A stretch of 64,000 nucleotides of DNA from a bacterium. Lineage in GTDB: Bacteria > Bacillota > Clostridia > Oscillospirales > Acutalibacteraceae. The notes beneath the pieces were generated by a model. The model saw only the letters and a program-made list of their open reading frames with translations. It had not been told where the DNA came from and ran no database searches. Positions within the stretch are counted from its first letter, which is position 1. Each line of letters begins with the position of its first letter. Below are positions 2,462 to 54,227 of this stretch, in pieces. The stretch is taken from contig CAVKLD010000003.1 in assembly GCA_963657065.1 (NCBI GenBank), positions 1,811 to 65,810 on the forward strand. Direction: 5' to 3'. The translations under genes were made by a program, and so were the position numbers.

Positions 2462-2480
2462 TTGAGGGAGGCGTTATATA

Positions 2481-4410: not shown

Positions 4411-4434
4411 TTTCGGTTTACTTAAAAAAACACG

Positions 4435-4464
4435 GACTGTCGCACAACGCGGCAGTCTTTTTTT
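4435..4464 (+). terminator. intrinsic terminator of the rplJL transcript
   Basis: Stem gactgtcgc/gcggcagtc (one G-U pair), 5-nt loop, then TTTTTTT (4458-4464). Confidence 0.85.
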
Positions 4465-4754
4465 ACTATGTACCGCGATTAAAACAAAGACGCGAAACGT
4501 GTACAAAACGATATCGTACACGTTTTGTGCTTATTGGTGACAATTCTTGTCCCCGCTGCACCCGCAGCGGAAACAAGAAGTAATAAGCGCGCAAACGGAT
4601 ACGGTGTACATGTGAGCGATAAACGGCGTTGCCATGTTTCGGTCTGAGGGAAGTCCGGGTAAAGCAAAGACTGTATTTCTTGTGAAGCCATTAGTTGTGA
4701 ACTTCGCGAAATACAGTCTGTTTTTGTTTTGTGCTTTAATTTGCGCGTGTGATT

Positions 4755-28368: not shown

Positions 28369-28443
28369 GCGCTTTTGTTGAACCTTTAACTACGCTTTAG
28401 CTTGTCACCGTATGATATGGTCAAAACAAGGGAGGCGATAACA

Positions 28444-29169
28444 ATGAGCGCATTACAGTGCTTTGAACGCAGTGAAATAAAATATCTTCTTACGCGTGAA
28501 CAGTATCAGTTTTTTGTCAATCGCGCTTCAAACGAATTGACGCCCGATGCGTATCCCGAAGGGCGAATCAGAAGCTTGTATTTTGATACTCCCGAACACC
28601 TTTTGATTGCGCGTTCGTGCGAACAGCCGGAGTACAAGGAAAAAATAAGACTTCGCGCATATTCGGACGTTACCGAGCAGACTCCGGTGTTTGCCGAGCT
28701 TAAAAAGAAATATGATTCGGTGGTTTACAAGCGGCGCACAAGCGTTTCGGAAGAGGACGCAGTTATGTGGCTGGAGGGAAAAAAGCATTTTCGCGAAACG
28801 CAAATTGAACGTGAAATAGATTCGTTCGCGGAACACTACAAGACGCTTTGTCCCGCCGCGCTCGTGTTTTGCGATCGGCTTTCGTTCGTCACAAAATCGA
28901 ATCCCGACCTGCGCATTACGTTTGATATGAATGTAAAAGGACGCATGTTCGACCTGTCGCTTATGCGCCCGGTGTACGGCGAGGAACTTTGTCCGGGACG
29001 TATCATAATGGAAGTTAAAGCTCCGGGCGCGGTGCCCGTATGGCTTGCGAAAATTTTGTCCGAGGGCAAAATTTACAAAACGAGTTTTTCGAAATACGGT
29101 ACGCTGTATCTGAAGTCAATCAAATCAAGAAACAACGAAGGAGAGAATAACAATGTCTGCAATTTTTAA
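28444..29169 (+). CDS. VTC-domain (polyphosphate polymerase-like, CYTH/TTM fold) protein
   Basis: FERSEIKYLL...RSLYFDTPE...EKIRLRAY matches the N-terminus of bacterial VTC-domain proteins. ATG at 28444 follows AAGGGAGG. Confidence 0.7.
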   Translation: MSALQCFERSEIKYLLTREQYQFFVNRASNELTPDAYPEGRIRSLYFDTPEHLLIARSCEQPEYKEKIRLRAYSDVTEQTPVFAELKKKYDSVVYKRRTSVSEEDAVMWLEGKKHFRETQIEREIDSFAEHYKTLCPAALVFCDRLSFVTKSNPDLRITFDMNVKGRMFDLSLMRPVYGEELCPGRIIMEVKAPGAVPVWLAKILSEGKIYKTSFSKYGTLYLKSIKSRNNEGENNNVCNF

Positions 29170-29848
29170 CGGAATTTTTGATACAACGGGAACATCGGTG
29201 ATATCGGTGACGAATTTCCTTATTTGTCTTGTTTCATCGCTTATTCTCGGCATATTGATTGCAATTATTTGCACTCGAAAAACAACGGCGTCCAAGAGTT
29301 TTACCGTTACCGCCGCGCTTATTCCCGCGATAGTCTGCGTGGTGATTATGGCAGTCAACGGCAACGTCGGCGCGGGTGTCGCCGTGGCAGGCGCGTTCAG
29401 TCTTGTACGTTTCCGCTCCGCTCCCGGCACGGCTCGTGAAATAGCCGTTCTGTTTATGGCAATGGGAACGGGAATACTTACCGGCATGGGTTACATCGGA
29501 TACGCAGTGCTTTTTACGGCAGTTATGTGCGCGGTGTTTGCCGTGCTCAATGCGACGAGCTTCGGCGAAAACGGTAAATCGCTCGAACGGACGCTCAAAA
29601 TGACTGTTCCCGAAGACGTGGATTATACGCAGGCTTTTAACGGCGTGTTTGAAAAATACACGGTCTGCCATACGCGCCTCGGCGCAAAAACCGCAGGGCT
29701 CGGCAGTTTGTTTAGACTTACTTACAGACTGACACTAAAAAATGCTGAATGTGAAAAAGCGTTTATCGACGGACTTCGTTGCCTTAACGGCAACCTTGAA
29801 ATAATTATGCACGGTACTGAAAAGGAGAGTGACAGAGATGAACTTTAA
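29153..29848 (+). CDS. DUF4956 membrane protein
   Basis: Multi-TM protein that overlaps the VTC gene by 17 nt. VTC plus DUF4956 is a recurrent gene pair in Firmicutes. Confidence 0.65.
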   Translation: MSAIFNGIFDTTGTSVISVTNFLICLVSSLILGILIAIICTRKTTASKSFTVTAALIPAIVCVVIMAVNGNVGAGVAVAGAFSLVRFRSAPGTAREIAVLFMAMGTGILTGMGYIGYAVLFTAVMCAVFAVLNATSFGENGKSLERTLKMTVPEDVDYTQAFNGVFEKYTVCHTRLGAKTAGLGSLFRLTYRLTLKNAECEKAFIDGLRCLNGNLEIIMHGTEKESDRDEL

Positions 29849-31589
29849 GAAAATAATGTGCATTCTCACGGCAGCGGCGGCGATTCTTTCATTCGCCGGC
29901 TGTGCGGAACAGGGCGCAAACACAACAACTGTTTCTTCCGCGGCATCATCCTCTTTGTCAGCGTCGGATTCATCTTCTGACGCAGACGGCGGCACGGAAA
30001 GTCTGCTTTCCGATATGTTTACCGACCGCGACATTGAAGTCGGATACGACGAGAGCACCGACACGGTGATAACTCTCTCTGACAGCGGTTCGACATGCAA
30101 AGACTCGTCAGTCACGATATCGGATAACACCGTGACTATAACGGCGGCGGGTACGTATATCCTCAAGGGAACGCTTACCGACGGCAGCATTGTGGTTGAC
30201 GCGGACAAAAGCGATAAAATCCATATTGTTCTTGCGGGCGTCAGCATCTCAAAAAGCACCACTGCACCGTTTTACGTAAAAAGCGCGGATAAGGTGTTCG
30301 TGACTCTTGCGCCCGGCACGGAAAATACTCTTGTGAATACGGGCGAGTTTACCGCAATCGATGACAACAATATAGACTCTTGCATTTTCTCAAAAGAGGA
30401 CATCACATTCAACGGTTCGGGAAGCCTTACGGTTTCGAGCGAAAAAGGTCACGGTATCGTTTGTAAGGATACTCTTTGCTTTACCGGCGGCAGCTACACG
30501 GTGACATCGACTGAGCGTCACGCGCTTTCGGCAAAGGACGACATCAGAATCATGGACGGCACGTTTGTACTCACGGCTGGCAAGGACGGACTTAACGCAT
30601 CGAACGATGATGACGCAACGCTCGGATTTATCTATATCGAGGGCGGCGATTTCAAGATAACGGCAGGCGACGACGGCATGCATGCTGAGGCGTATCTGCA
30701 CATTCTCGGCGGCAGCATAGATGTTGCGGAGTCATACGAGGGACTTGAAGGACACACGGTTGAAATTTCCGGCGGCGACATAAAGGTAAAGTCTTCCGAC
30801 GACGGTATAAACGCTGCGGGCGGCGATACTGATTCCTCCGACCCGATGGCAAAGGATGAGGAAGCGTATGTAAAGATATCCGGCGGCACGGTTTACATTG
30901 ACGCAGACGGCGACGGAATAGACTCAAACGGCGATCTCTACGTCAGCGGCGGCATCGTTACCGTGTGCGGTCCGACGAGCGGCGGCGACGGTGCTCTTGA
31001 CTACGGAGAACGTGCAACGGCGCAGATAACGGGCGGTACGGTGTTCGCTTTCGGTGCGGCGAACATGGCGGAGAATTTTAACTCCGCCGAAAATCAGGGG
31101 GTCGCGCTTGTTTCCCTTTCGGGCAGTGCGGGTGATACCGTGACAATCAAAAACAGCGACGGCGAAACGCTTGCTTCGGCTGTGTCAGACAAGAATTATG
31201 AGTGCGTGGTTGTGAGTTGCGCGGGGATGACTGAAAACGGTACGTTTACGATTACAAACGACGCCGACAGCAAGGAATTTACCCTCAGCAGCTTCATTTA
31301 CGGCGAGAGCGGCATGGGCGGTATGAACGGCGGCGGCATGAACGGCGGCGGTCAACCAGGCGGCATGAACGGCGGCGGTCAGCCCGGAGGCGGCGAGATG
31401 CCGACGGGAGAGAACGGCGAACCTCCCGAAATTCCCACGGACGAAAACGGCGAACAGCGTCAAATGCCCGACGGCGAAATGCCTGCGGGCGGCAGCGGCG
31501 AACAGAATCGTATGCCGAACGGCGGCGCGGGCGAGGAACCGCCTACGGGTGAGGACGGAAAACCGCAGCAGCCGTCAACCGAAGCGTAA
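29838..31589 (+). CDS. lipoprotein with a Cthe_2159-type beta-helix carbohydrate-binding domain and a Gly/Met/Pro/Glu-rich tail
   Basis: Lipobox ILSFAGC. MFTDRDIEVGYDES...ITLSD...VTITAAGTYILKGTL...FYVKSADKVFVTL, and repeated (S/D)DDG(I/M)(N/H)A turns as in PF14262 proteins. Overlaps the DUF4956 gene by 11 nt. Confidence 0.7.
   Translation: MNFKKIMCILTAAAAILSFAGCAEQGANTTTVSSAASSSLSASDSSSDADGGTESLLSDMFTDRDIEVGYDESTDTVITLSDSGSTCKDSSVTISDNTVTITAAGTYILKGTLTDGSIVVDADKSDKIHIVLAGVSISKSTTAPFYVKSADKVFVTLAPGTENTLVNTGEFTAIDDNNIDSCIFSKEDITFNGSGSLTVSSEKGHGIVCKDTLCFTGGSYTVTSTERHALSAKDDIRIMDGTFVLTAGKDGLNASNDDDATLGFIYIEGGDFKITAGDDGMHAEAYLHILGGSIDVAESYEGLEGHTVEISGGDIKVKSSDDGINAAGGDTDSSDPMAKDEEAYVKISGGTVYIDADGDGIDSNGDLYVSGGIVTVCGPTSGGDGALDYGERATAQITGGTVFAFGAANMAENFNSAENQGVALVSLSGSAGDTVTIKNSDGETLASAVSDKNYECVVVSCAGMTENGTFTITNDADSKEFTLSSFIYGESGMGGMNGGGMNGGGQPGGMNGGGQPGGGEMPTGENGEPPEIPTDENGEQRQMPDGEMPAGGSGEQNRMPNGGAGEEPPTGEDGKPQQPSTEA
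31301..31586 (+). repeat. low-complexity coding repeats (GMNGGGQPG units, then MP.GE-type units)
   Basis: ggcatgaacggcggcggtca is repeated at 31336 and 31363 (27-nt period). The protein reads GGMNGGGMNGGGQPGGMNGGGQPGGGEMPTGENGE... Confidence 0.8.
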
Positions 31590-33941: not shown

Positions 33942-34337
33942 GCACATGTTTATGTGCACATTGGTGCTCATAGACACAATTAACTTATGTTTTACGGCAT
34001 TTATGGCTTTAAACAAAAAAAATAACCGCCCCGGCCGCAAACTCATGACGGTTTATTTCTTAACCAACGAGGGGGCGCAACCGTCTATCAGCCGGAAACG
34101 TCCTTCGGTTGTTATTATACAACGCGACACGCAAAATGTCAACTGTTTTGCGTATTCTGTTTTAATATTCAAATTAAAAGAAGTTGCCGGCGGTGTTGTC
34201 GAGGCGGCTGTTTTTTTGTCGTGAGATGTTAGCATATTCGCCAAAAGTGTCGGATTATAAAGACAAGAAAATGCTCTTTTGTGCAAAACGCACACTTTGG
34301 ACGTTCATTTTTTGGACATAAGTTTTGGCTGCAAGCG

Positions 34338-34367
34338 TTGACAACTGTGTTTTAAATAATATATAAT
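34338..34367 (+). promoter_or_regulatory. candidate sigma-A promoter of the giant gene
   Basis: TTGACA (34338-34343), 18-nt spacer, TATAAT (34362-34367). This implies a ~300-nt 5' leader. Confidence 0.55.
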
Positions 34368-34673
34368 AGTGATGATGTAGTATGCCCGAAGTGTACCCTT
34401 TTCTTTTGGGTAACAGCGGACGGCGTATTCGTCGCATTCCGGCAAAAAATCGAGTGACGGAACCCAAACCTCACGGGGAAACATGCCGGCGGATATATTG
34501 AAGCTTCGCGCAGTGCCGTTAGGAGTTCGGAAGGACTTTTGTGTCAGTTGCGGTACGCGGTAACGGGACTTTGTATGTTTGCCGTACGCACGAGTTTCTC
34601 ACAGGGGGATAGGCTCCGAATGGGGCTTGGCTTCCCTCACTCACGAAAATACTTAAAAGGAGTGTTTTTTTAC

Positions 34674-37600
34674 ATGGAAACAAGGTATAAGCTTTCGACT
34701 AAGATCTTAAGCTCGTTTCTTGCGGTTCTGATGGCGGTGTCATGTTTTGGTATCGCTCTGCCCAATCTTGCCCCGACGGCAAGCGCGGCGGCGACAAGCC
34801 AGGACTACAAGTCGCTTGAAAACGCTTTTGACGCCGTTAAAGAAGACGACGGCAGCATCAGCGCGTCCAAGTACACCGTTACCGCCGGCGAAGACGGCGT
34901 GACGCTCATTGAGGACGCAACCTCGGACGGCAGCATCTATAAGCTCGCCGAGGCTCTGTTCAATGTTGCGAGTGCCGAAAACGGCGAGTATAAGCACAAT
35001 ACGCTTATACGCGAGCGCATCAAAACCATACTTGCAAAGAACGGCTACACGTACACTTCTTCGATGGAAGACTTTGTTAACACGCTTCTTCCCGTTGACG
35101 GAGATTACGCTACGGATTCCACGAATCCCGCGAAAGGTACGCCCAAGCTCGTTGACGCAGGCGAACCCGAAGCCGTCTACACAAAGACGCTTACGACTAC
35201 GGTTAAGGTGACGCGTTCCGAAAAGTCCGTTGTCCTCACTTACGACGACATTAACGATGTTCCCTCAAAGCTTGACCTTACCGTTAAGCTCACGACGGTT
35301 GCCGAGCCTAAAAGCTCCAAAAAAACTTTTACCGACGCTGCGGGGCTCGAGTATGGTCAGCTTTCCGAATGGTACGAGAATACATCGTGCGCGGTAGAGT
35401 ATGAACAGGCGGACACGACCGATTTCTCCGCTCTCAAAAAGTTCATGAGCTACATAAAGAGCGATTCGTTCGCGCCTTACTACGAGCAGTATTCGAATAA
35501 CGCGGACAACGTTTACACTTTCGACGCATCCGTTCTTGAAGGCTTCGAGGAGAAATTCAACGGCTACTATACCGAGTCTGTCTACGGTCTTGACAACGAC
35601 TACCTCGACAAGTACCTCACCACGGGCGAGGGCGAAACGCTCAAAACCGGTCTTGCGAACATGTCGGCTTATCAGTCGTTTGCTGTCAAGATGACTGCCG
35701 TTTACGACCCCGTCTTCAACAAGCGTTTCGTTGACTGGGCGATGAAAGGCACGTCCGTTTCGGGTTACATCGACAGAGATGCGTATCTTGCACGCGAAAA
35801 CAGCGCGGGCGAGGTGGTTGAACCCGATAAGGATACCGTCGGCAAACTCCTCGAACAGGCTAAAACGTTCAAGGATATCCTTAATGACGCTACATACAAT
35901 AATATATATGTAGAGAAGTACGGTTACGTAAACGGAACGATTGAGGATCTCATTCAGAAAATCTATGTCGCTTACCAGCATTTTACGCTCGACGGATATT
36001 TTGAAAATATCGTTTTCCGTATGGAGAACACTTCCGACAAATACTTCAATGACGACATGGCGTATTTCGGTCTTGCCGATTACGACAGCTCGAAGTATGC
36101 CGCCGGCGAGATGCCCATCACCGACGCAATGCTCGATACGGCTATCGCGTGGTTCGGTGACTTGCTTGTAAAGATTGATAATAACGAGGATTACGATGAC
36201 GAGGGCAGAGATGCCGCCGTTGCCGCCGCGGGTTCTTCAACGATAACGACCTACGCGCAGGTTGTGGATTTCTATAATAATCTTGTTGCCGAGCGTCAGT
36301 CCGAAAACCGCGAGCAGGTCAATGCCTACATCGATAACTACTACAGCTATTTCCAGAACTTTATCGACAACGCTCCCATGCTCGATACCGTCTACATGAC
36401 TAACGCTTATGCGACCGGTATCGACGAGAAAGTTAAGGAATGCGACACGGCGTATGCCGAAGCCGTTACGGCTGTCGGTGCGACTGCCGCAGCGAAGATT
36501 TTCGGTGACTACAAGGGCAGAGCCACTCGTGCAAAGGATGCGATAAAGAATGCGCTGAATGCGCGTCTGCTTGCGATGTGCCAGCTTATGGAAACGTATG
36601 CAGGCAGCAGCATTTCCGAGGCGAACTTCTCGCTTGTCAAGGCACAGTACGGTACTATTAACAATGCCATAATTCCCGCAACCGTCAACGGAACGGAAAC
36701 CACGATAAGCCTTTATCAGTGGTGCAAGAACCAGGGTTACACGGGCGCGGACAGCATATATAACAAGTATGCAAGCACCTACAACGCGCAGATAAATACC
36801 GTTATCGCAAAGAAGTTTTCTAACTTCTCAAAGATGGATCTTGCGACGAGCGGCGTATACACGGTTCGTCATGCGACGGCTCACGATATGGCGAGATACG
36901 TTGCGGGCGACGGCGCGACAGACGAACGCTATGAGTACACGGTAAACAAGGATCGCGTTAACAAGGTTATCACGAAGCTCGATACTTTCCTTACGTCGAA
37001 GAGCTTTACTCAGCTTCTCGGTGTTGACGGCGAGTCGAAATTCGGCACCGGCAGAACAATAACGAACATCTCCGATTATATCGAAGATTTACTTATCGCA
37101 AACGTGTTCAGCGACAAGGTCGTTAACTCCGTTATTGCGATGCTGTTCCCGACGATTACAGACATCCTTGATAACTTGTTTAACAACCTTCAGAGTATGC
37201 TTCCTTCAGATATGAGAGGAACCATATCGGGCGGTGCGAATGCGGCGCTCAATCTCAGTTCACTTGGCGTTAAGGTTGGTGGTTCTTTTGCAGGTGTTAA
37301 GAATCTGAGAGGTAACGGTCTTATTTTCGTTAACGGCAACAGGGGAACAACTCTTCTGTCCAAGGCTTTCAGTGATCTCGGCGTTAAGATTTATCCTACG
37401 TATTTTGCGGACGCAATCGGCAGCACCGTTTCACCGCAGCTCTATAAAGACCTCAAGAGCGCAAACCTTGACTGGAAATGGTTCGATCGCAACGGTAATA
37501 ATGACGGCAAGGTGGATGCGGAAGACTTCATCAAGCTCGATTCGAACGGCGACCCGATTCTTGATGCTAACAAGAATACGCAGCCGAAATATACCTGGAA

Positions 37601-40600
37601 CGTAACGGATTATAACAGCTTTACAAGCGCAATGGGTAGAGTTTTCAGCTCCGTTCTTCCGATACTTCAGGTTGTTCTCTGTAACTATACATATCAGACC
37701 AGTCAGATAAACAATTTGCTTTATCTCGAAATGGACAGTAGCTCAAAGGTTGATGTTACTGCACTTTGGATTACGGATGACCACAGCGTTGCCGGTACGT
37801 ACGCGTGGGCTAACGCCGCCATAAAGATGACCGGTACACAAGGGTACAACAACCTTTGGGGACCCATTATGGAGGCGGCAGGCATTACCGCAACCACTGG
37901 GGGCTATAATGTTTCGGAATCAACTCCGATTTCCACGTCGATAGGTACATCGGGCAACGGCGCAAGTGCGCAGCAGCTGGTTAACGCGCTGTTCATGCCC
38001 ATTTACGCTCTTGTGAAAAAGGTTGCAAAGCAGCCTATCGCAACCGTGATGGACATTCTCCCGAATGCGGCGTACTACGTTTCATACGGTCTTATAGAAC
38101 CCTTGCTTAAGAACATTCAGACGAGCGTTTCCGTATACGCCAACATAAGCAATATGGAGCTTAAGGGCAGTTCGATAGCAAGTATCGCTAACTGGTTCAA
38201 CGGAACGATAAAGAGTGAGATTAACAAGGTTCTCCAGCTTGAAAACATCGCAACGGTAAACGTCGGCGATCTGCTCAATCTCTCCGACCTGCTCGGCTGC
38301 GACGTCACTGACCTTAACGCGATAGCGAACATGGTTATCGGCAAGATAAGCAGCGACAGCAGCACCGACAAAAAGGTTGACATTCCTGCAATTAACGCAA
38401 GTAAGCTCGGTCACCTCGGATCTCTGTCCACAGTATCGAGTATCAGAACGGTTAACACCGCGGGAGCGGGTTCGGGCAAACGTTACACGATAAACGCCGA
38501 CCGCGCCGACGTGCTCTATGATATTCTTTCGTGGGTGCTCAAGTTCATCTCCGGCGACGGAAATCTCTCCGCTCTTTTGTCAACGTTCGGTTCGAGCGGC
38601 CTTGGCAGCGAGCTTGACAGCCTTCTCGCCGAGATAAATTCCGAAAAGGCTCTTGCCTCTCTCGTTGAGCTGTTCCTGCCCAGAGGTTTGGAAGGCAGCG
38701 GATATGACAGCGGTTATGATTTCGCAAAATATAACTGGTATCATGCATCCGAGGGCGACTGGTCATACGACGTTCCCTACACCGCTTTTGTCTATACCAA
38801 GTATGAGAATTACTGGACGAAAGAAAAAGCCGCATATCTCTTCGAAAACCTCGAAACGGTTGCAAATGACGTCCTTAAGAAGTACGCTTCGGGTCTTCTC
38901 GGAGATTACGACGGCATTAACGAATGGCTTGCCGCAAAAATCAACAGCATATTTGACAATGACAACGTCACGGGCATCGTCAAGCTGTTCACCGGCATAG
39001 GCAAACTTCTTGCCGGCAATCAGACGATAATCGACCTGCTTAAAGAGCAGATAAACGGCGGTCAGGGTGTCGACCTTGCCGCATGGTACAATACGTTCGG
39101 CTATCTCGATTACGATTACACCGCTCTTGACGAGGCTCTGGCGGTTCTCGACGATGCTGACGCGACTGATGAAGAAAAGGCAGCCGCTCTCGAAACCGTC
39201 GCTACCGCTCCGCTCAAACCCGGTCAGTCGATAACCTATACCGATGCCGACGATAAAACGCAGACGCGCACGTATGAAAATTCTTTCGATAAACTCGTCG
39301 CGACAAAGGGCGAGGACGGAAAAGTCAGCTGGACATACGACGGAAAAGCTCTTGACGGAACTGACGAGGGACGCCGCCTGTTCATGGATATCGTTTCGTA
39401 CCTTATCACTCCGGCTCTTCCCATCGTTAACATTATTCTTACCGGTGAAGATTGCACGTTCTTCGAAAACGCACTTGTCATAAAGGGTTACGACTGCTAT
39501 TCGAACGGACTTGTTCCGCTTCTCGAAATGCTCGGCGTGTCGGATCTTCCCACGACTGCGGAGTTCCACGCAATGGATGCGCAGACGGGACTCAGCACAA
39601 TATTCAACAAGCTCTATGACTACGTGACTTATCTTCTTACTGCCGACGAAGACGGTACTACCATTCAGAAGATAGTCGGTATTCTTCCGAGATTGTTCTA
39701 CTTCCTTCAGAGCGACGGACTCTCGGCTATGCTCAAGAACCTTATTCAGCCTCTTTGGGTTCTCATCGATACGGTTCGCCCGATAGCCGACGTGGATCTT
39801 GACGGGTTCCTTCATCAGTTCCTTTGCGACTATCTCGGCCTTGCCTACGACAAGAACGCCGAAGACTACAAGGTCGGTGCAGTGGTTCAGCTTGTTATGA
39901 ATCTCCTTAGCAAGAACAAGCTCGAAAAGACATACACCGACGCGCAGATAGCCGCCGACAAGGAAAAAGTGGACGCTATCTACACTCTCTCGATTGAAGA
40001 TCTCAGCCTTACTTCCATCTTTACGGTCGTAAGCCTCATGTTCGATATCGACCTTACTCCGCTCGCATATGCGTTCGAAGGCATGTGCATCAGCTACACT
40101 GAAAACGGCGAAGATTATGGTATCGTGTCTTTCGAATCCAAGAGGGGCGAAACGGATTACACCGTTAACTACTCCGGCGCGGATATTATCACTGTTGTTG
40201 TTTCCGTTCTTCTTGACGTGCTCCGCTACGGCGATAACGCGAAAGGCTTCGACAAACTCTTTGGCTTCGTTAAGGAAAGATCTGACCGCGAGGGCGTTGA
40301 AATCACAGCTGCGGGACTTCTTGAAACAATTCAGGCAGTATTCACCGACAAGCCGTTCGACCTCGGCAAACAGCCCAACTGGGACTATATCCTTGAGGGC
40401 AAGGACGTTAAGCGTTCCGACGGCAGCTCTTCCGTGTGGGTCGACATTGACGCCGACAGCACGGACTATGCGGCACTTCTTCCTTTCAACAACGAAGACA
40501 TGAGCGCATACCATTCCATTTATAATCTTCAGTACTTCACCGACTGGACGGAAGATACGGCGAAGAGCACCGTTACAATGCTTTCAAACGTTCTCGACTA

Positions 40601-43600
40601 CGTCGCGGGTCTTCTTAAAAAGTCCAACGGTCAAAACGCGTTCAGCTTCAAGGATTACATCGACGATCTCCTCGAAAGCAAGGTGTTCAACGGCAAGACG
40701 CTCAAGAGCCTTGCGGATCTCATGTGCAAGATATACAACGCTCTTCCCGAGTCGGCTGTCGCGCTTATCGACAAACTGCTTGACACAAGCGTTACCGAGT
40801 GGAGAGATGCGTATCTTGAAATCGACGAAAACAATACTTACGTTCCCAAAACCGACCATGTTTGGTGGGCGGATGAAACGCTTGCCGGTTACGTAGACAC
40901 TACCGATGAGTTTATCAAAGCTCTGCATGAGCTTCTTGATCCCGCATCCAAGGTCTTTGCGTGGGTGCTGCTCGATCAGGATATTAAGCTGTTCTACACC
41001 TACGGCAAGGGCGTCAATCAGGAAGGCTACGGCGACGACGCTGTAATTCTCGACGGTATCGGCCTTTACACCAAGGCGTTTATCCCGGTACTTGAGGCTC
41101 TCGGCTACACCGACCTTGAACACTTCGAATTCAAGGACGGCTCAAAGCACAATGTCACCACGGCTCACTATGAAGAAGCCGTTACGGATGAATCCGGCGA
41201 TATCATAATGGGATTCAAGCTCAAAGAAGACGCCGACTTCACATATGATTTCGTCGAGATGCTCGCGAAAATCATTGAAGACATTACCCGCGATCCCATA
41301 AACTGGATTCTCGACAGACTTCCCGGTTTTATCTACTTCATCAACGCAAACGGCTTTACCACAATCGTTGAGAACGTATTCGATTCCGTCGGCGACGTTA
41401 TCGACATCATCAATACGCAGCTCAGCGCAGACAGTCAGATAAGCCTTGCATCCATCGCGAAGATAATCAACGAAAAAGTCGGTTCGGAAGTAACCGACAT
41501 CACCGGCACACTGGACGACGAGCTTAACGGCAAACTTGTGATTGACTTTGATACGATTATTTCTCTTATCGAAAAATTCACAGGCATTCACTTCGACTCC
41601 GTGCTTGTTAAATTCATGAAGAGCCTCAACGTCGGCAAACTCGTAGCGTTTACTTCGGGCAACGGCAGACAGTCCTTCACGATGCAGTATTCCGATACGG
41701 AAGAAAAGCACGACATGGTGACAATCATCCTTGCGCTTCTCCTCGAAATCCTTGAGGGTAAGGGTACCGATGCGGAAACGGGCGTTGAATACGACAACCC
41801 CGCAGCTATCGATAAGCTCATTACCAAAGAAGACGAAGAGAATAAGGGCACGGTAAGCTCCATTATCAATGCCATAAAGAATCCTTCCGATGTTATCGAG
41901 AAGGAAATGAACTGGAACTATTTCGATGAAGAGATGGTTATCGCGGAGAAAGAGGGCGGCGATACTGCCGGTCAGACCGTTACCATCCCCGCTTACAAGT
42001 TCCTCTACCTCAACTACACCACCGACTGGACGAGAGATAAAGCAAAGTCAGTCAAGGAAAGCCTGAACGACCTCGTTCTTGCGGTCCTCAAGATGACGGG
42101 CAGCAAGTATGCCGACGCGACGGACGTTTCCGCAGTCGTAAACGACCTGCTCAAACTCGACAAATTCTACACCGCCGAGAACCTCAATACGGTGCTCAGA
42201 CTGCTTGCGGATAACCTCTACGGTGTAAATGCCATTATTCCCAACGCGCTCTCCGAATTTGCGGGCGCACTCCTCGGTGCGGACATCACCTCGTGGAATT
42301 ACAAGTATTCGTTCGAAACGGTAGACTCCGTCGATGGTTTCAATGAACCCGACGACACCGGTCTTTACTGGAAAGAGGGCGAAATCAGCACAAACGAGCG
42401 CGTGACCGACGAGAACGGCGACCCCGTTGTCGACGAAGACGGCAACACCGTATATAAGACGAGGACGGGTATCGTTTACGCTGTCAGAACGGATGAAAAC
42501 GCGAGAGCGGACTTCATCAATGGCGTAAATCTCATCGTTGAGCCTGCATACAGACTCATTGAATGGCTTCTTCTCGGTTCGGATTATACTTTCTTCAACG
42601 CTCAGAAGAGCGAAGGTCTTGACGAACTCGAAAACGAGATTCACCCCGCACTCATCACCCTTAAGGGCGCGAACGGCTACGGCGAGGCGTTGGGTTATTT
42701 CCTCGAAGCTCTCGGCTGCGTAGGCGGCAACTGCCAGCTTAAAGCTGCAAGTTACTACAGCTACACCGAAGTACAAAACGGTCAGAACGTTACGCTTTAC
42801 AAGACGAAAGAGCTTGTCAACGACATCCTTACGGTTCTTTGCAACAGAGTAGACAAGATAGTCGCCGACCCCGTTTATGAAATAGCCGGAATGATTCCCG
42901 AGCTCCTCTATTTCATCAACGCAAACGGTTTGAGCGTCGTTGTAAACAATCTCCTCGGCGGAGTGCTCGACCTCATCGGTTCGGATGCTGTCAAGAACCT
43001 CACCGGCAAGAACCTCAACATCAACGACCTTGTCACCGATATTCTCCGTAAATCTCTCAACAACAGCGATATTACATTTGATATCGACGGCATCAACATT
43101 CAATACATCTTTGAGATCGCCGAAAAGCTCACCGGCCTTTCGATTAACGATGCAATAGGTTCAAACCTTAAGTACTTCTACATGGGCGACCTCCAGAGTT
43201 ACTCCTCCGCAAGCGGCAAAATAGCTTACAGACTCGTGTTCAGCGAGAATGATTTGACGAGCGGCGGCAACGGTCAGCTTCAGGACTTCATCACGATTCT
43301 TCTTTCGATGGTCGTGGATGTGCTCATGTACAAGCAGAACGCTGCGACTATAGTCAGCCTTGCGAATATTGACATCAGCGTTGAAGTTATCGAAGGCATA
43401 GTTGAGTTCCTCAAGGAAGGCTTCGAAGTTAACACTCTTCCTTACGACTGGTTCTATTTCGATGACAGCCTGACAAAATATGAAATCGATTCCGAAACAG
43501 GCAAGCTCGTCGTGAAGAAAGATGAACCTCATATAGATGAAACTACCGTCGCTGTTATTCCCGCAAAGACGACAATGAGCTACCTTAAGTACGCTTCGGA

Positions 43601-46600
43601 CTGGACGGAAGAAACAGCAGAGTACATCTATCAGAACCGCAATGAAATCATTAAGTCCGTGCTTCGCATTATGAAAGCGGATTCCACGGATCTCGGCGCA
43701 ATCATCAGCGATAAAGTAAACCTCGAAAAGACTCTCTACACTGCCGAAAACCTCAACAAGATACTCAATCTTGTTAAGCCCACGCTCGGCAAGATAGACG
43801 ACACTCTTCTTAGCTTGCTTAACATCGCGATTGATATTGACCTTTCCTCTCTCAAGAATATGGAGGAATTCACGGATGAACAGATTACCGGCAGAACGTC
43901 GTTCGTCAACGGCCTTTGCTCGATAATTCAGCCGCTGTCCCCCATCCTCGATTGGCTGCTGTTCGGCAACGCCATCGAATACTTCGACAAGAAGGATTAC
44001 GATACGGGTAAGGTTGAAACTCTCATCTCGCTGCCCGGCTCGAACGGCTACCTCAACGGACTTGTTCCGCTGCTTGAGGCTCTCGGCGTAATTCTTCCCA
44101 AGTACGAGGAAGGTCAGACAACAAAAGACGTGTTGTATGTTCTTATAAACAACACGCTTGCAAGAATCGAAGGCATTCTCGCTAACCCCGTGGACGAAGC
44201 TCTCGCACTTATCCCCGAACTTCTCTACTTCATCAATGCAAACGGTCTTGCAACCTGCATCAACAATATGCTCGCAGGCGTGGTTGCTCTCCTCGAAAAG
44301 ATCAATCCCGCTCTCGGCGACAATGCGATTGAGCTTCAGACGCTCCTCAACAAGGTTCTCGAAGGCGCAAACGTCAATCTTGATCTCTCCAAACTCGACC
44401 TCCTTGCAATCGCGGGCGTTATCGAAGAAGCTACCGGCATTGAAATTACCGACATCTTCACCGAAACGAAGATCGATAAATTCTACTTCGGCACGATAGT
44501 TCACAATAAGGATTCCGCAGATCCGACGAACGTAAGCTTCAAGATGGTTTACTCCGAGGACGAAGGTCCCGAAGATATGCTTACTTTCATAGTGAACCTT
44601 GTAATAGAGATACTTCTCTATAAGGACGAAGAAAAAGGTTACGACAATGCGAAGGCTATCGACATTATTATCAACGGCAAAGACCCGATAACCGGCGAAC
44701 CTATGAAGAGCACCGTTCAGGCGGTAGTCAACATTCTCCTCGGCATAAAGAACGTTGAGAAGATTGACCTTAACTGGAATTACTTTGATGAGTCGGCGAC
44801 GCTTTCGGACGAAATTACCGTTCCCGCAAATGCATTCGTTTACCTCAACTATTCCAACGACTGGACCTATTCCAAGGCGGCGTACCTTGACGAGAATCTC
44901 GACAATATCATTGTTGAAGCTCTCAAGCTCCTTGGCAAGGACGTTGACAATGTCGGCGATCTTATCAACATCGACCTTAACGGTTTCATGAACGCCGATA
45001 CGCTTAATAAGCTCCTCGACACACTCAAAAACTTCCTCTACGGCGAAAACTCCGTGCTCGACGATACACTCTTTGAGCTTGTGGGACTTGTGCTCGGCGC
45101 AGATCTCACGCAGTGGAGAGATAGTTACAGATTTGAGGTTTACGATGAAGCGAATACCTATGAAGGCACCGAATACGGTCTTTCCTACAGAACGGTTGAC
45201 GGTGTTAAGACTTATGCCATTGGTTCTCCCGACAACTTCGCGGACGGTCTTGCGGTTGTTCTTCAGCCTGCGGAAAGACTTCTCGGCTGGCTCCTTATGG
45301 GCGAAAGCTACGGATTCTTCGTTGACAACAAGACCGGCAACGTCGATGCAAACGGCGTCCGTCAGAACGGTGAACTCATCAAGATAACCGGCGCGGACGG
45401 ATACGATGCGGCTCTTACCGTTCTCCTTGAAGCTCTCGGCTGCACAGGACTTAAGAAAGCGGATGAATACGCTAACTGCGGCGAAATGCTCTCTGCGGTC
45501 ATTAAGTCGGTCGTTGCCAGAATCGGCGAAATTCTCAAAGATCCCGTAAACGAAGTATTCGCTCTTATCCCCGAGCTTATCTACTTCATAAACGCCGGCG
45601 GACTCAATTCTGTCGTGAATAACCTTGCGGGTGCGGTCGTTGCGCTGCTCAAGGAAGCCGAACCTCTTACAGGCAAGGCGGTCGACATTGATACGCTTAT
45701 TACCGGCGTTATCAAGAATGCTCTCGGCAGCAAAGCTCCCGATGACTTCAAGTTCACTCTCGAAGGCGTTAACCTTCAGTGGGTTATCGAATTTGCGGAA
45801 ATGTTTACCGGTATCGAAATAAGCGAAGCAATCGGCTACGGCCTTGAAAAGTTCGCTCTCGGTGTCGTTGAAAAATACGAATCCGCTTCGAGCTACTACA
45901 ACGAAACGTACAAGATGCACTTCGCAGCCGATCACGACGGCGATGATTACGCTCGCGACAGAGCCGACCTTATAACGATTCTGTTCAGCGTTGTGCTCGA
46001 CGTTCTCGAATATGACCCCGAAGGCAATGAGGCATATCCGAATGCCGACGCTCTCGCAAAACTTATCAACAACGATAAGGTTTCCGCGGATACGGTGAAG
46101 AGCATAATCAAGATTCTCAAGGGGTATGTCATCGACGGCGTTAAACCTATCGACTGGTTCTACTTCGATGAGGATAAGACGGTTTACACAACGGATGCGG
46201 AAGGCAACCGCGTTGTTAAGAATCCGCTTCCCGAATTTGACGAGAACTCCGTAAAGAACGTTCCCGAAAACACTATCAATTATCTCACCTATGCTTCCGA
46301 TTGGAATAAGGATACCGCACAGTATCTCGATAACAATCTTGACGCGATCGTTGCGGAGGTTCTTACCCTCATGGGCAAGGGCAACACAACCGTTGCCGAG
46401 ATAATCGCAGACAAGTTTGACTTTACCGATCTTTACAGTGCGAACAACCTTAACAAGATGGTCAAGGCTGTCAAGGGTCTTACCGATCAAATAGGCGAAA
46501 CATTCACCAACATGGTCGGCATGATTCTCGGCGCGGATCTCACCGCTTACTCTACGATGAAGTTTGCCGATGACGAGATAACCGACAGAGAGTCATTCGT

Positions 46601-49600
46601 AAACGGTCTTGTTACGGTTCTCACTCCTGTTACTCCTCTCCTTGACTGGCTGCTCTTCGGCAATTCGCTTCAGTTCTTCTCCGCCAAAGACACGCCTGTT
46701 TCCACGGACGTTAAGGATCTTATCAACATCACCGGATATGAAGGATATGCAACGGGTCTTGTACCGATTCTCGAAGCTCTCGGTGTGGAAAATCTTCCCG
46801 AGTGCAGCGGCGTCGACACAGTAACCGAAATTCTCAAGGATGTTGTTGATTCCATTCTCGCAAGAATCGAAGGCGTTCTTGCCGACCCCGTAGACGAAGT
46901 TCTCGGACTTATCCCGAATCTCCTCTACTTCATCAATGCCAACGGTTTGTCAGCATCCGTTCAGAACCTCCTCGGTGCTGCTTTCGGACTTCTCGACACC
47001 GTTAACCCGATACTCGGCGACAAGAAGATAGATGTTAACGCAATCATTAACGATCTCCTGTCGAAAAACAATATCGAAGCCGCCGTTGATATCGACAATC
47101 TCGACCTCCTTGCCATAGTCAAGGTTGTTGAAGGCGCAACCGGTCTTACCATAGCCGACGTCGTTACGGAAAACAAGATTGACAACTTCCGTCTTGGCAA
47201 CATCGAGTACTTCCGTTCCTCCAACGGCAAAGCGGCGTTCAGAATGAGATATTCCGACACGCAGGGCAGAATCGATATGATAACCGTACTCGTCAACTTC
47301 CTCATCGAGGTTGTAACAACAGGCGAAAATGCTGCGGCTCTCGAGAATCTGCTTAAACTCGACGCGGGAACGATTACCAAGGTAGTCGGTGTCCTCACAG
47401 GCAGTGATACGGACTTTGCTTACAAGGCATTCAATTGGAACTACTTCGATAAAACCGTCGATCTCAACAATGCGGTTACCGCAGTTCCCGAATATTCGTT
47501 TGTATACCTCAACTATGCAAACGACTGGACTTACGACAAGGCGGTATATCTCGACAGCGGTCTTAACGCTCTCGTTAACAGCGTTCTCAAGCTGCTTGGC
47601 AAGGATGTAACCGTTGAAGAGCTTATCGCTCAGACGGTCGACCTCAACACGCTGGTATTCAACGCCGACACGCTTAACAAGCTGCTCAATACCGTTTCCG
47701 GATTGTTCTACGGCGAGAACGCGGTTATAGGTCAGCACCTCGGCGAGGTTGCGGGTCTTATACTCGGCGGTGAGCTTGCACAGTGGAATGACAACTATTC
47801 CTTCGCGGCTTACGACGCATCGACTGAATACCTTACCGATGGCATTACGGGACTCAAGTACGTCGTTGACAACGGAAAGGCTATCTTCGCGATAGAAAAC
47901 TCCGATGACTTCATCGCAGGTCTTTGCAAGATACTTAATCCTCTCCACAAGATTCTCGGTTGGCTTCTTCTCGGTGACAGCTATGAGTTCTTCGTGAAGA
48001 ATACAATCAACGAAGACGGTACTCAGGATACAATCCTCAAGATACCCGGCAAGAAGGGTTATGCAAACGGACTTTCCTACCTCCTTGAAGCTCTCGGCGT
48101 CAAGAATCTCAAGTCCGAATACGCGGATGCCGACGCACTTCTCAAAGACGTTCTTACGCAGATCGTTGCAAGAGTTACCGAAATTCTTGCGAACCCGATT
48201 GACGAAGTCCTTGCGCTTATCCCCGAAATCATCTACTTCATAAATGCAAACGGCCTCGGCGTGACGGTTTACAACCTTACTTCCTCCGTGATGAACATTT
48301 ATGATACCGTTAAGAAGACGGGTCTTCTCGACAGCATCGAGCAGATAAAGAACTACAGCACGGGTGAAGAGCTTGTCAACGGTCTTGTTGACAGCATCAT
48401 CAAGGATAAGGTCAGCGCGGATCTCACATTCACGCTCGACGGCATTAACCTCGAATGGATTCTCAAGGTTGTTGAAACCGTAACCGGACTTGATCTCCGC
48501 AGCCACATCAACTCCCTTGAAAAGTTCGCTATCGGCGAAGTTTATAAGTATGAATCCGTATCCGGCATCAATGCTTATAAGATGCGCTTCGGCAAGTCGG
48601 GCGACGGCAGCGACAATCTCCGCGACAGAGCGGACATGATAACCATTGTTTTGAGTTATGTCATTGACCTTCTCACGATTGAACAGAATCAGACGAAGAT
48701 CGAAGAAATGGCAAACCTCAACGCAGGCACTGTTGCCTCCATACTTGCACTCCTCTCCGAGAAGAAGTACGAAATCGGTGTTGACGTTAAATGGTTCTAC
48801 TTCGATCCGGATGTAGACGTTAAAACGATTGATTCCGAAACCGATCTTAAGGAATTTACTCCCACTATAAACTACCTTACTTATCAGTCCGCCTGGACGG
48901 AGCAGCTTGCTGATTATCTCAGCACAAACCTTGATGATGTCATTGCAAATATTCTCGACATCGCTGGTAAGGGCGATACCACGGTTGCTCAGATAGTAAA
49001 GGATATGTTTGATCCCGAAACGGATCTCTATACCGCAGAGGTTCTCAATAAGCTTGCAAACGGCATTTCGAGCCTTGTTTCCAAGGTTGACGAAACGCTT
49101 ACCGGCACGCTTGGCATCCTTCTCGATGTTGACCTCGGCGCGTATGCGAAGATGGACTTCGGCACGGGCAGAGTAGGTAAGGATGGCTTCATCGAAGGCA
49201 TCTGCGAAATCGTCAAGCCCCTCTCTGGCGTTCTCGATTGGCTTCTGTTCGGCGACGCGTACGACTTCTTCAGCAACGAAAAGACGGGCGTTCAGAATCT
49301 TCTGACAATCAACGGCTACAGCGGTTATGCTTACGGTCTTGTACCTCTCCTTGAGGCTCTCGGCGTTGCACTTCCCGACGTTTCGGCGGAGGCAAATACC
49401 GAAAACACCGTAAACGGTCTTGTTACCGCTCTTGTCGACAGAATCGAAGAAATTCTCGTTGACCCCGTAAACGAAGCTCTCGCACTTATCCCCAACATTC
49501 TCTACTTCATCAACGCCAACGGTCTTGCAAGCGCAGTCAATAACCTTCTCGGCGCGGCTGTCGGACTTGTCGACAGATTCAACGAGGAAAATCTTGTTGA

Positions 49601-52600
49601 AAAGCTCGGTCTTAACCTTGACCTTGACGGCGACGGCGTAAACGATACGAAGATAGATCTCAACGGTCTTATCAACAAACTTCTCAAGGACAACGGAATT
49701 GGCGCAACGGTTGATATCAAGAATATAAACCTCTTGTCCATAATCAGCGTTGTCGAAGCTGTTACCGGACTGGATCTTACGACGTTTGTAAGAGAGAACG
49801 GCATTGAAAACTTCTACCTCGGTCAGATAACCTACTTCAAGTCGGCAAACGGCTCCGCAGCATTCAAGATGGAGTACTCGTCCGATAAGAACAAAGACAG
49901 ATCCGACCTTATCACCGTTGTTGTTAACTACCTCCTTGAGGCAGTCCTCTACAAGAATGAAGAAACCGGTGCGGACAACGCAAAGGCAATCGACATTCTC
50001 ATAAACGGCAAGAACGATGACGGAACACCCAAGAAGAACACCGTCGGAGCTATCGTCGAAATGCTCGGCAAGCTCGGTACAAAGGCTCTTCCCGGCGATT
50101 ACCACTGGAACTACATGAACGAAGACAGTGACGACGTAACGCCCGAATCCGAGTACAGCGAAATTGTTCTTCCCGCAACTCCGTTCAACAATTACCTCAC
50201 CTACTGCACGGATTGGACGCAGAACACGGCGGATTACCTTTACGATAATCTCGGCACAGTCGTAGATGCCATCATTAAGATGACCGGCAACGGCGATACG
50301 CTTGCAGACTTCGTAAACGGCAAATTCACACTCTACAAGGCTGAGTATCTCAACAAGATTCTCGACGCTGTCAAGAAGCTCTACAACCTTGCAGATACAA
50401 AGGTTCTTAAGCTCCTCGGTCTTGTTGTTGACTGCGACCTCACCAAGTGGGACGGCATGAAGTTCGAAGATGCAGACATCACGGATGCGGCTACATTTGC
50501 AGCCGGCATTACGGAAATAGTCGAACCCGTATACACGCTTCTCGACTGGCTCCTGTTTGGCAAGGACTACGGCTTCTTCGTAGACGATAAGACCGGCAAC
50601 ACGGGCGCAGACGGCAAGACGCTCCTTAACATCGCGGGCGCGGACGGCTACATCAACGGCCTTGCTCCCCTCTTCATCGCTCTCGGCGTTGACCTTCCCG
50701 AATACGCGGCCGGTTACACCTGCAAGACGATGGTCGATGTCGACGGTGTTCAGATGACATTCTTCAGCGCGGTTATCAAGTCCGTACTCGCAAGAGTCGA
50801 CGAGATACTCGCAAGTCCCGTAAACGAAGCGCTTGATCTTCTTCCCGGACTTCTCTACTTCATCAATGCAAACGGTGTTTCCACCGCAGCATACAATCTC
50901 CTCGGCGGCGTTCTCAACGCGGTTAACGTGCTTGTCGAAAACAACATTATCAGCCTTGGCGGAACATCTGTCGAAGAATATGTTGAAACAAAGCTCGGTC
51001 TTAACGTTAAGGACCTCGACCTTGAAGGCATAGTTAAGTTCCTCGAGAACAAGAACATCACCAAGGGCATCAAGATTTATGATGTATTCAATGGTATTTA
51101 CAATGTCGATGAAAACGGCAGCGTAACGTTTACTCCCGATGCATCCGCAGACGGCAACATTCTTGAAAAGTTCTACTGCGGCGAGGTCACGTCCTACACC
51201 TACTCCGGCGTCAACGGCTGGCAGATGGTTACAAAGACGGGCGAAGGACGCGGCGACATGATTACAACGCTCCTGAGCATTGTCCTCGAAGTTCTGTTCT
51301 ACGAAAGCAACGAACAGCCGATAACCGATATCGTTGCAGGCATGATCGACGGCTTCACGGTTGAAAACTTCAGAAATCTTAAGGCACTCCTTGCAACGGG
51401 TGTTAACCTTGAAGACGCTATGAAGGATATCGACTGGGTATATTTCAACAAATACGCAACCGACGCAGAGCGCGAAGAAGCACTGAAGAAAGTTCTCCTC
51501 GATCCATCTTCAAACGTTCTTCCCGCAACGCAGCCCGAACGTACTACACATTATCTTGAGTACGACAATAACTGGAACAAGAAGACCGCGGAGTACATTG
51601 ATGATAACATCGTTTCAATAGTCGACCTCGTTATAGCCAAGTTCGTTGACGGTTCCGACAGTCTTACAGACTTAATCAACAACAACCTCAACATCTATTC
51701 CGACGATGTTGCGAACAAGATACTTGCAAAGATCGGCAGCCTGCTTCAGAAGCTCGACGACAGCCTTGTTGATACGATAGGCGTTGTTCTCGACGCGGAT
51801 CTCAACGCTCTCACCGCTCCCGTAAGCGGCGTGACCGACAAGACAACATTCGTTGCGGCTCTTGCAAACAGACTTTCCAACATTGGCAATGTTCTCGATT
51901 GGCTCCTGTTCAATCAGCAGATGACATTCTTCACCGACCTTGAAACAGGCGCTCAGGCGAAGATAGTTCTCAACGGCGGCGAAGGCTACAAGTACGGTCT
52001 TGCACCTATCCTTGAAGCAATCGGTGTTAATACTCACATTACTGTTCCCGCTCCGGCGGCAGGTACGACGATTACCGCTCGTGTTCTTGTTGAACTTCTC
52101 ACGAACGTTTGCGACAGAATCGACGAAGTTCTCGCAAATCCGATAGACGAAGTTCTCGCACTTCTTCCCGAGCTTATCTACTTCATCAATGCAAACGGCG
52201 TAAGCGTGTCTGCAATGAACCTTGTAGCTCCCATCGACGTACTGCTCAAGGAAGTTGGCTCGAATATCGGCAAGAATGACCTTGACTTCTCAAGCCTCGT
52301 CAAGTTCGATATCTCCAACCTCGACTTCGAAGGCATATTCGCTATCGTTCTTGACAAGACCGGCATCGACGCCCAGTCCCCGATAGGCGAATATCTCGCG
52401 AAGTTCTACTTTGGACAGCTTGAATCCTATCAGTCTTACGACGGCATTCAGGGCTTCAGAATGGTTTACTCCGAGACGGAAAAACGCTACGAGTTCGTAA
52501 CCGTTCTTGTGACACTCCTTCTCGACGTTGCTTCTTACGAAGGCAACAAGGACGCCATCATCAAGCTCCTCGGCAACAACGAAAAAGCTGAATCCATCTA

Positions 52601-54227: not shown

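Follow-up and report, generated by a model that had tools for sequence, protein, structure and literature searches.

A 6,517-residue exported protein with ~430-residue helical modules, a candidate membrane-tethered surface fibre of gut Oscillospirales

What is a protein of 6,517 amino acids (aa) that carries an export signal and none of the usual hallmarks of giant Gram-positive surface proteins, and how might it be held at the cell surface? The question arises from a 64,000-nucleotide (nt) stretch of an Acutalibacteraceae genome (GCA_963657065.1, contig CAVKLD010000003.1, positions 1,811 to 65,810; hereafter, the window), in which a single gene at 34674..54227 on the plus strand encodes such a protein. 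A first-pass annotation, made from the sequence alone, had suggested an undescribed family of extracellular scaffold or fibre proteins. The first part of this suggestion stood, as searches of Pfam, NCBIfam, PDB, and Foldseek came back empty, while a scaffold or fibre function is proposed here as an interpretation. Judged by sequence comparison, the giant protein is the first example of a family, sizeable and so far unannotated, with ~430-residue helical modules. We consider it somewhat better than an even bet that the protein is a Sec-exported surface fibre tethered to the membrane at its C terminus, with a layout like that of Ebh and Embp and with unrelated parts.

The giant gene and its family

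The coding sequence runs as one stop-free open reading frame (ORF) of 19,554 nt, as the annotation had it, from the ATG at 34674 to the stop codon at 54225-54227 (6,517 aa plus the stop). An assembly artefact, a chimera, or a decaying pseudogene is an explanation invited by the source, a contig of a metagenome-assembled genome (MAG), and by the proneness of repeat-rich genes to misassembly. Against it, the internal DNA copies are only 60 to 80% identical and at most 163 nt long, and a 66,476-bp NCBI contig carries an identical product called from the same start. Near-full-length orthologues occur across many independent assemblies: a full-length orthologue (P0003; 77% identical) represents a 90% cluster of 62 sequences, and all 15 listed members of that cluster (6,546 to 6,572 aa) come from ENA and Logan assemblies with contigs of up to 304 kb. 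Compared with the orthologous locus L003, the ratio of nonsynonymous to synonymous substitution rates (dN/dS) was 0.15 (Nei-Gojobori; 5,243 aligned codons) and lay between 0.10 and 0.18 in each 500-codon bin, and no frameshift was found along the whole gene in this comparison. No tandem arrays were present at the DNA level within the gene, and its GC content equals that of its flanks. By these comparisons the ORF is neither chimeric nor interrupted; the gene is genuine, purifying selection acts over its full length, and the artefact or pseudogene explanation, to which we assign next to no weight, is effectively refuted already.

Long antisense ORFs (351 to 1,109 aa) also lie within the giant gene, at 38763-40514, 42048-43103, 43161-46490, and 46950-50105 on the minus strand. 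They stay open because TTA, CTA, and TCA account for just 27 of the 6,517 codons, and we rejected them as genes; they occupy the codon-aligned reverse frame and represent a codon-usage artefact.

Scans of the whole protein against Pfam and NCBIfam gave no match above noise (Pfam E ≤ 1). They upheld the earlier reading that SLH, choline-binding, dockerin, Ig/Cna-B, cadherin, RTX, and FIVAR/GA domains are missing. Among wall-binding domains, SLH, CWB2, LysM, GW, and choline-binding domains were sought in both databases and not found, and Pfam detected no cohesin or dockerin modules of scaffoldins in the giant protein. There were likewise no RTX, cadherin, or Ig-like (Big, Cna-B) repeats, the nearest match being CshA_repeat at a subthreshold 17.6 bits (cut-off, 27). 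The LPxTG motif occurs nowhere in the protein, in agreement with the annotation; the looser pattern LPx[TSA][GNAS] matches at four internal sites, each before aa 3,125. When PDB sequences were searched with the modules and the N-terminal head, single sequences and profiles alike returned noise only. Foldseek at E ≤ 0.001 found no match for the module in PDB and BFVD or for the head in PDB; the top matches were generic helical rods (MUN, cullin, spectrin, and importin; TM-score, ~0.1). Pfam scans of 31 other family members revealed no consistent domain.

An exhaustive hmmsearch of 1.84 billion representatives with a module hidden Markov model (HMM) recovered 576 cluster representatives at E ≤ 1e-3 and 359 at E ≤ 1e-30; counted this way, the module family is not rare. 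Extreme rarity had been suggested by word-index searches, in which the double module and the head gave one match each, and was rejected as a sensitivity artefact. Many members are 2,000 to 7,700 aa long with 4 to 16 modules. The 150 matches listed of the 576, to which all counts of tails and signal peptides per representative refer, contain 2 to 16 matched module stretches. A signal peptide was present in 106 of these 150 relatives, and the others that were inspected begin mid-protein and look like fragments.

Scanning one genome per GTDB species yielded 66 loci, all in MAGs, from human, goat, buffalo, deer, and rabbit guts. Their labels were Acutalibacteraceae, Oscillospiraceae, Ruminococcaceae, or just Clostridia, with one contig labelled Bacteroidaceae; the family as located is confined to Oscillospirales MAGs from gut and rumen. 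No plasmid-borne or cultured relatives were found by tblastn against PLSDB. Certain genomes hold two or three paralogues of the giant gene, and the sole source name seen for relatives was "hypothetical protein [Clostridia bacterium]". The gene stands alone, as had been claimed: no neighbour gene is conserved over 53 loci, and the biggest neighbour cluster (5 of 53) reflects local synteny only.

Modules and N-terminal head

The repeat unit, put at ~440 aa in the first-pass annotation, was recovered as ten full modules of 412 to 512 aa and two divergent ones, which are 20 to 49% identical to each other. Boundaries were set by fragment self-comparison and motif mapping, and the HMM was built from ten modules (alignment A1). 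It matched the giant protein 12 times, with the ten full modules at aa 1922-6414. All modules are encoded on the plus strand. Divergent module 1 (aa 933-1321; 37470..38636; independent E value [i-E], 1.9e-15) resembles the modules of a two-module relative, P0001, and is followed by divergent module 2 (aa 1348-1893; 38715..40352; i-E, 1.2e-44) and canonical module 3 (aa 1922-2413; 40437..41912; i-E, 4.8e-131). The modules start at a W-x-Y-F-D motif. Modules 4 (aa 2414-2925; 41913..43448), 6 (aa 3368-3827; 44775..46154), and 8 (aa 4255-4705; 47436..48788) are of a WNYFD type, and modules 5 (aa 2926-3365; 43449..44768), 7 (aa 3828-4254; 46155..47435), and 9 (aa 4707-5140; 48792..50093) are of a WFYFD type. 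Modules 10 (aa 5145-5587; 50106..51434) and 11 (aa 5588-5999; 51435..52670) were placed by the module HMM and motifs, and module 12 (aa 6000-6414; 52671..53915) closes the array (i-E, 2.8e-120). The alternation of the two types, together with a spacing of ~2.66 kb between the best DNA repeats, suggests duplication of a two-module unit and points to amplification of such a unit as the origin of the array.

Beyond the start motif, each module contains YLxYxxDWT, DWLLFG, GxxGYxxGLxPLLEALG, and PELLYFINANGL. No catalytic-looking set stands out among the invariant residues, which are W, F, Y, P, G, and N. An AlphaFold2 model of module 7, computed from a 10-sequence alignment of internal repeats (pLDDT, 75; pTM, 0.74), comprises ~20 helices and two β-hairpins. 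The prediction that the protein is mainly helical was thus confirmed by the AlphaFold models, which are mostly helices, and its description as acidic and rich in Leu, Asp, Asn, Ala, and Glu also proved correct (L, 11.3%; D, 8.5%; A, 8.1%; N, 7.0%; E, 6.0%; net charge, -448; isoelectric point, 4.3; mature mass, ~713 kDa).

The array is preceded by a Sec-type signal peptide (aa 1-38; 34674..34787, plus strand) and a head. The N terminus, METRYKLSTK-ILSSFLAVLMAVSCFGIALPNLAPTASA|AAT, has the n/h/c layout: the n-region is basic, the hydrophobic core is long, and the cleavage site is of the AXA type (predicted cleavage, ASA|AA). It is the sole segment of the giant protein with transmembrane-grade hydrophobicity. 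A lipoprotein reading of this signal peptide was rejected, as its Cys context (AVSC) is not a lipobox. The head (aa 39-800, ~760 aa; 34788..37073, plus strand) is hypervariable. In its AlphaFold2 model (aa 38-800; pLDDT, 77; pTM, 0.40), long helices follow an alpha/beta sub-domain that contains 20-residue β-hairpins. Head residues 201-600 are recognisable in just 2 of 151 relatives, and the head is only 25 to 28% identical in relatives whose modules are 40 to 50% identical.

At the other end, a conserved C-terminal domain and an acidic linker (aa 6415-6487; 53916..54134, plus strand; ...YYIFYGANVAAHETKNW...LGDLLNKYTPDIVDDDEI) follow the last module. The domain is 62 to 85% identical in orthologues, the linker has a net charge of -5, and the last ~120 aa are recognisable in 104 of 151 relatives. 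Relative to L003, dN drops from ~0.26 to 0.30 (aa 1,700-2,700) to ~0.10 near the C terminus. This rise in identity to orthologues from the head (25 to 28%) to the C-terminal domain (62 to 67%), with falling dN, is as expected if the N terminus is exposed and distal.

Among relatives, the signal peptide itself is 57 to 95% identical. Its sequence (M-x-x-KK-x-LSV-x-L-x-x-x-M...) is 57 to 65% identical in the same protein pairs in which the adjoining head is 25 to 28% identical. A generic Sec signal would not usually be so well conserved, which might hint at specialised targeting.

The properties of the modules also bear on a second interpretation, that the protein is an envelope scaffold and not an adhesin, tethered to the membrane, linking membrane and wall, and setting envelope spacing or forming a lattice through module-module contacts. 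The strong conservation of module motifs such as PELLYFINANGL and GxxGYxxGLxPLLEALG, the purifying selection over the entire length, and a consensus housekeeping-type promoter would all suit a scaffold, as would P0001, a minimal relative that consists of two modules and a transmembrane anchor and lacks a head. The extreme acidity of the giant protein fits as well, being typical of wall-associated or S-layer-like proteins, and Ebh comparably contributes to envelope integrity. However, the hypervariable head and the 4- to 16-fold variation in module number better fit an exposed, environment-facing protein, and the Pfam and NCBIfam scans revealed no SLH, CWB2, LysM, or other wall-binding domain. 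We regard the scaffold interpretation as possible but unlikely, and prefer the exposed, membrane-tethered fibre.

The C-terminal tail and the proposed tether

The annotation had found no anchor, and this part of it was not borne out. The giant protein ends in VPNGFVKFFKSILDFFKKILAFFQKMFKTK (54135..54224, plus strand), a cationic (+6) amphipathic helix with Phe at heptad spacing, which we propose to be a membrane anchor. The tail is family-wide, with the consensus ...(V/I)(A/V)PNGF(I/V)xFFQKIxxFFKKIxxFFKNLF at the extreme C terminus. Its hydrophobic moment, 0.72, is the maximum in the giant protein (background, 0.34 ± 0.11). The positive charge (family mean, +2.2) comes after an acidic linker on bodies that average -8.9 charges per 100 aa. 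Of the 150 representatives, 101 carry the motif, as do 56 of the 57 family ORFs at the loci; among the other 49 representatives, 6 are of a transmembrane type, and variants, some plainly fragments, make up most of the remainder. A profile of the tail searched against a 5.8-billion-protein index returned only C-terminal fragments of family proteins.

Distant relatives carry other endings at the same position. A transmembrane helix, KKKK, and a short cytoplasmic tail end six members that match the family strongly (P0088, P0120, P0121, P0124, P0142, and P0152) and the two-module P0001; five of these seven show a signal peptide, and the other two are 5'-truncated. About 10 further members end in a W/F-rich hydrophobic hairpin in place of the tail. 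Three interchangeable membrane-type endings at one position suggest that the job of the tail is membrane attachment. The giant protein itself has at least two tandem modules, a Sec signal peptide, and a C-terminal membrane-type element, the features of family membership, and its predicted cleavable signal peptide and ~20-aa amphipathic C-terminal helix agree with the sequence layout of the PBP5-type exoproteins, a class defined by mechanism and not by homology.

Similar tails end other exported proteins. In two Acutalibacteraceae MAGs, a calcineurin-like metallophosphoesterase (PF00149) with a signal peptide, encoded ~2 kb downstream of the giant gene (L013, 15549-17246; L020, 15219-16898; both minus strand), ends in ...SFLDKIKKFFKDIFDFFHMLFAMIA. 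Its C terminus, ...SF(L/I)(D/E)KI(K/R)(K/R)FFKDIFDFFHMLFAMIA, keeps the heptad register of the family tail, and a tail HMM made from family sequences alone matched the two enzymes at E values of 7.6e-5 and 2.7e-3 among 2,779 ORFs. These loci were not chosen for the tail, the ORFs being those that adjoin family genes. On a metagenome contig (L137; GC content, 37%), a cell-envelope-type protease with S8, PA, and Fn3_5 domains (3-3035, plus strand) ends in ...GFFAKIAEFFKKIGEFFASLFSKK, the Phe-heptad tail, and is followed by an OppA-like SBP_bac_5 lipoprotein (3048-6092, plus strand). The two look like a surface proteolysis and peptide-uptake pair. The S8-PA-Fn3_5 architecture is normally LPXTG anchored, as in lactic acid bacteria. 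This contig came from a DNA pattern scan of metagenomes for the tail, in which the matches listed were mostly T-rich low-complexity DNA and L137 alone was informative. Within the window, a Pfam-dark, beta-rich exported protein of 374 aa (21947-23071, minus strand; signal peptide MKKTLSVFLAVILAVCCLPFAAFA) ends in a Phe-rich amphipathic helix, ILSMIRSIFETIKIFFQQFADMFKTTA, whose likeness to the giant tail is loose (HMM E 4.4, not significant). Identical copies of this protein occur in two other assemblies, including GCA_963649385.1.

The tail pattern scan also brought up a freshwater metagenome contig (L096; Ga0114974_10037281), on which four adjacent small Cys-rich ORFs each end in the hydrophobic ...NFFN(L/I)IILFIxNLF(K/R). 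These ORFs, which have no relation to the giant family, resemble a cassette of paralogues.

The presence of the tail at the extreme C terminus of several unrelated exported proteins could also mean that it is a recognition signal for a dedicated sorting or processing enzyme (sortase-, exosortase-, or rhombosortase-like), with covalent attachment to wall or lipid, and the short conserved (V/I)(A/V)PNG right before the helix in the family would suit such a signal. The PNG motif is missing from the nonfamily tails, however, and no conserved neighbour gene is there to encode the enzyme. The tail also lacks the tripartite motif-transmembrane-basic layout of known signals, and at E ≤ 10 none of the curated NCBIfam models for sorting signals (PEP-CTERM, GlyGly-CTERM, Firmicu-CTERM, and others) matched any of five tails. 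We consider a sorting signal very improbable. Direct membrane attachment remains our preferred role for the tail. A wider proposal, that the ~430-aa module is a new stalk fold of lineage-specific giant fibres and that the tail is an unrecognised sortase-independent surface-retention signal across many exported proteins, is one that we put forward tentatively, as having rather less than an even chance of being right.

In the preferred model, the gene would be transcribed from its consensus sigma-70-type promoter, and the product would be exported by Sec and cut by signal peptidase I after ASA. The last ~26 residues, as a cationic Phe-rich amphipathic helix, would then lie in the outer leaflet of the cytoplasmic membrane and tether the C terminus in the manner of PBP5; the transmembrane replacements in relatives and the like tail on other exported enzymes support this step. 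The twelve tandem ~430-aa helical modules would form a long stalk through and past the wall, if their geometry is extended, and the stalk would show the hypervariable head, perhaps a binding element, at its distal end, as the variability gradient suggests. The protein may accordingly be pictured as a surface fibre with a role in adhesion, spacing, or envelope scaffolding.

Several points weigh against this model. The module 7 structure is of moderate confidence, and the fold searches covered PDB and BFVD alone. The modules may have their own function and not be mere spacers, given the headless P0001. The nonfamily tail case comprises three protein types, one retrieved by pattern and one loosely similar, and the tail HMM E value of the L137 protease (2.9e-6) is not independent, its locus having been retrieved by the tail pattern. 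The tail falls short of the hydrophobicity needed to span a membrane, and its heptad periodicity could equally drive oligomerisation.

The last two points lead to a further alternative, a released extracellular fibre or matrix protein in which the C-terminal helix would be an oligomerisation element (coiled coil or bundle) that makes multimeric fibres. The strict 7-residue hydrophobic periodicity over three heptads and a Lys content too high for membrane crossing are in its favour. Yet true transmembrane anchors with KKKK replace the tail in relatives, and the tail also ends monomer-type enzymes (the phosphoesterase and the S8 protease), for which retention is more sensible. Moreover, the hydrophobic residues occupy heptad positions 1, 2, 5, and 6, giving a wide aromatic face and not a canonical a/d core. 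On this balance, a released fibre seems improbable, and we retain the membrane-tethered fibre.

Locus, significance, and comparison with known systems

The signals that the annotation had described 5' of the gene, as well as the ASA|AA signal peptide, were all confirmed in the sequence. A sigma-70-type promoter at 34338..34367 (plus strand; TTGACA-18-TATAAT, 12 of 12 matches) lies ~307 nt 5' of the giant ATG, and both hexamers are kept at the orthologous locus L002, which is 63% identical. The ribosome-binding site, AAAAGGAG (34655-34662, plus strand), stands 11 nt 5' of the ATG. Between promoter and gene, a putative 5' leader of ~300 nt (34375..34673, plus strand) shares blocks with L002, such as AAATCGAGTGACGGxACCCAAACC and GGGGCTTGGCTxCC. 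The leader matches L002 only (nhmmer E 8.5e-32) and is not present 5' of more distant family genes. With no Rfam match at E ≤ 1 and conservation in the closest orthologue alone, it was rejected as a known RNA element.

The neighbours of the giant gene are thrS upstream and, downstream, a convergent nrdG-like radical-SAM gene and metINQ. A GC-rich hairpin (54260..54289, no strand assigned) starts 33 nt past the giant stop. Because the T-run alongside it is on the minus strand, the hairpin probably terminates the convergent nrdG-like gene. For the giant gene it would be at best a bidirectional stop; a simple terminator scan of the plus strand after the giant gene found nothing. The same intergenic region contains a perfect 13-bp inverted repeat (54335-54382) and, at 54400-54560, several imperfect ~18-nt units with GCAAA(C/G)G (TRF consensus, GTTGCAAAGGACGCAAAC). 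Between thrS and the giant gene, a second perfect promoter (34114-34142, minus strand; TTGACA-17-TATAAT) faces the 3' end of thrS, overlaps a hairpin with a 10-bp stem (34129-34153), and has no obvious gene downstream.

Elsewhere in the window, genes for a VTC-domain protein, a 231-aa ORF, and a 586-aa Cthe_2159-family protein (carbohydrate-binding, beta-helix-like) occupy 28402-31589 (plus strand), just 5' of thrS. A radical-SAM/SPASM enzyme immediately downstream of a sulfatase (58574-61686, minus strand) forms the usual anaerobic sulfatase and maturase pair and fits a gut glycan-desulfating lifestyle. The ribosomal protein L10 leader (RF00557; 63.7 bits) at 3273-3417 (plus strand) is the sole Rfam family at gathering score in the window.

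Human and ruminant guts harbour abundant, mostly uncultured Oscillospirales (Acutalibacteraceae, Ruminococcaceae, and relatives), whose surface display is poorly known. In these bacteria a family that can occupy 20 kb of a small genome under purifying selection has gone unseen by Pfam, NCBIfam, and PDB. As a surface fibre, if it is one, the giant protein would be a prime candidate for attaching cells to particles, mucus, or partner cells, and would come under phage and immune pressure. If the tail is a general anchoring device, it would allow the surface proteome of Oscillospirales to be predicted by a simple sequence rule and would provide a portable surface-display tag for anaerobic Firmicutes and a family-level HMM annotating hundreds of "hypothetical" giant genes. 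Should the retention-signal proposal hold, the tail would fill the role of LPXTG for giant fibres, a phosphoesterase, and an S8 cell-envelope protease.

Among known systems, the S8 protease on L137 concerns the tail and not the giant protein. It resembles the PrtP/ScpA type in its S8, PA, and Fn3_5 domains and its position next to an Opp-like binding protein. Proteinases of that type carry an LPXTG-transmembrane-basic C terminus, in place of which the L137 protein has the Phe-heptad tail.

Gram-positive fibrillar adhesins (SasG/Aap, Rib/SHIRT, and Cna-B stalks) have a variable distal head, a tandem-repeat stalk, and a C-terminal anchor, with stalk domains of 70 to 130 aa that are mostly beta-rich and present in Pfam, and end in LPXTG. 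The giant protein would share their variable distal head, a repeat stalk of varying number, and a C-terminal anchor, but it has neither small beta-rich Pfam stalk domains nor LPXTG.

The RCC1-type giants of Oscillospiraceae are arrays of PF00415 beta-propellers of 10,000 to 40,000 aa and are reportedly anchorless (West-Roberts et al., bioRxiv 10.1101/2023.11.21.568195). Like them, the protein described here is a repetitive giant, predicted to be extracellular, of uncultured gut Oscillospirales; unlike them, it has no RCC1 (PF00415) match in Pfam.

For the proposed mode of attachment, the closest parallel is PBP5, whose membrane attachment is by a C-terminal amphipathic helix (PMC2909392). PBP5/PBP6-type DD-carboxypeptidases, which such a helix keeps at the outer face of the cytoplasmic membrane, resemble the giant protein in Sec export and a cleaved signal peptide, as predicted here, and in a short amphipathic helix at the C-terminal end (PMC2909392). 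There is no sequence relationship between them; the tail described here is Phe/Trp-rich, has three heptads, follows PNG, and is carried by non-PBP cargo, and its membrane binding is predicted.

Ebh, named by the annotation as the nearest conceptual analogue with no shared motifs, is a fair analogy. In Embp and Ebh, an export signal precedes a rod of helical-bundle repeats, and a transmembrane region lies at the C terminus (PMC7587433). The giant protein is like Ebh of Staphylococcus aureus and Embp of Staphylococcus epidermidis in giant size (megadalton in Ebh and Embp), N-terminal export signal, helical repeat array, acidic repeats, and stand-alone gene (PMC7587433), and, as proposed here, in C-terminal membrane attachment instead of LPXTG. 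Helical content is common to the AlphaFold2-modelled modules and the Ebh/Embp repeats, and an extended rod, as formed by the latter, is proposed for the former. The parts differ. FIVAR, FIVAR-GA, and DUF1542 are missing from the giant protein (Pfam E ≤ 1, whole protein), its N terminus, METRYKLSTKILSS, lacks YSIRKxxxGxxS, and its repeat is ~430 aa long versus 125 to 170 aa, with no sequence or Foldseek similarity to the solved Ebh/Embp repeats. The hosts are Oscillospirales in one case and Staphylococcus in the other, and the C-terminal element is an amphipathic tail here and a transmembrane helix there, although distant relatives of the giant protein do have a transmembrane helix.

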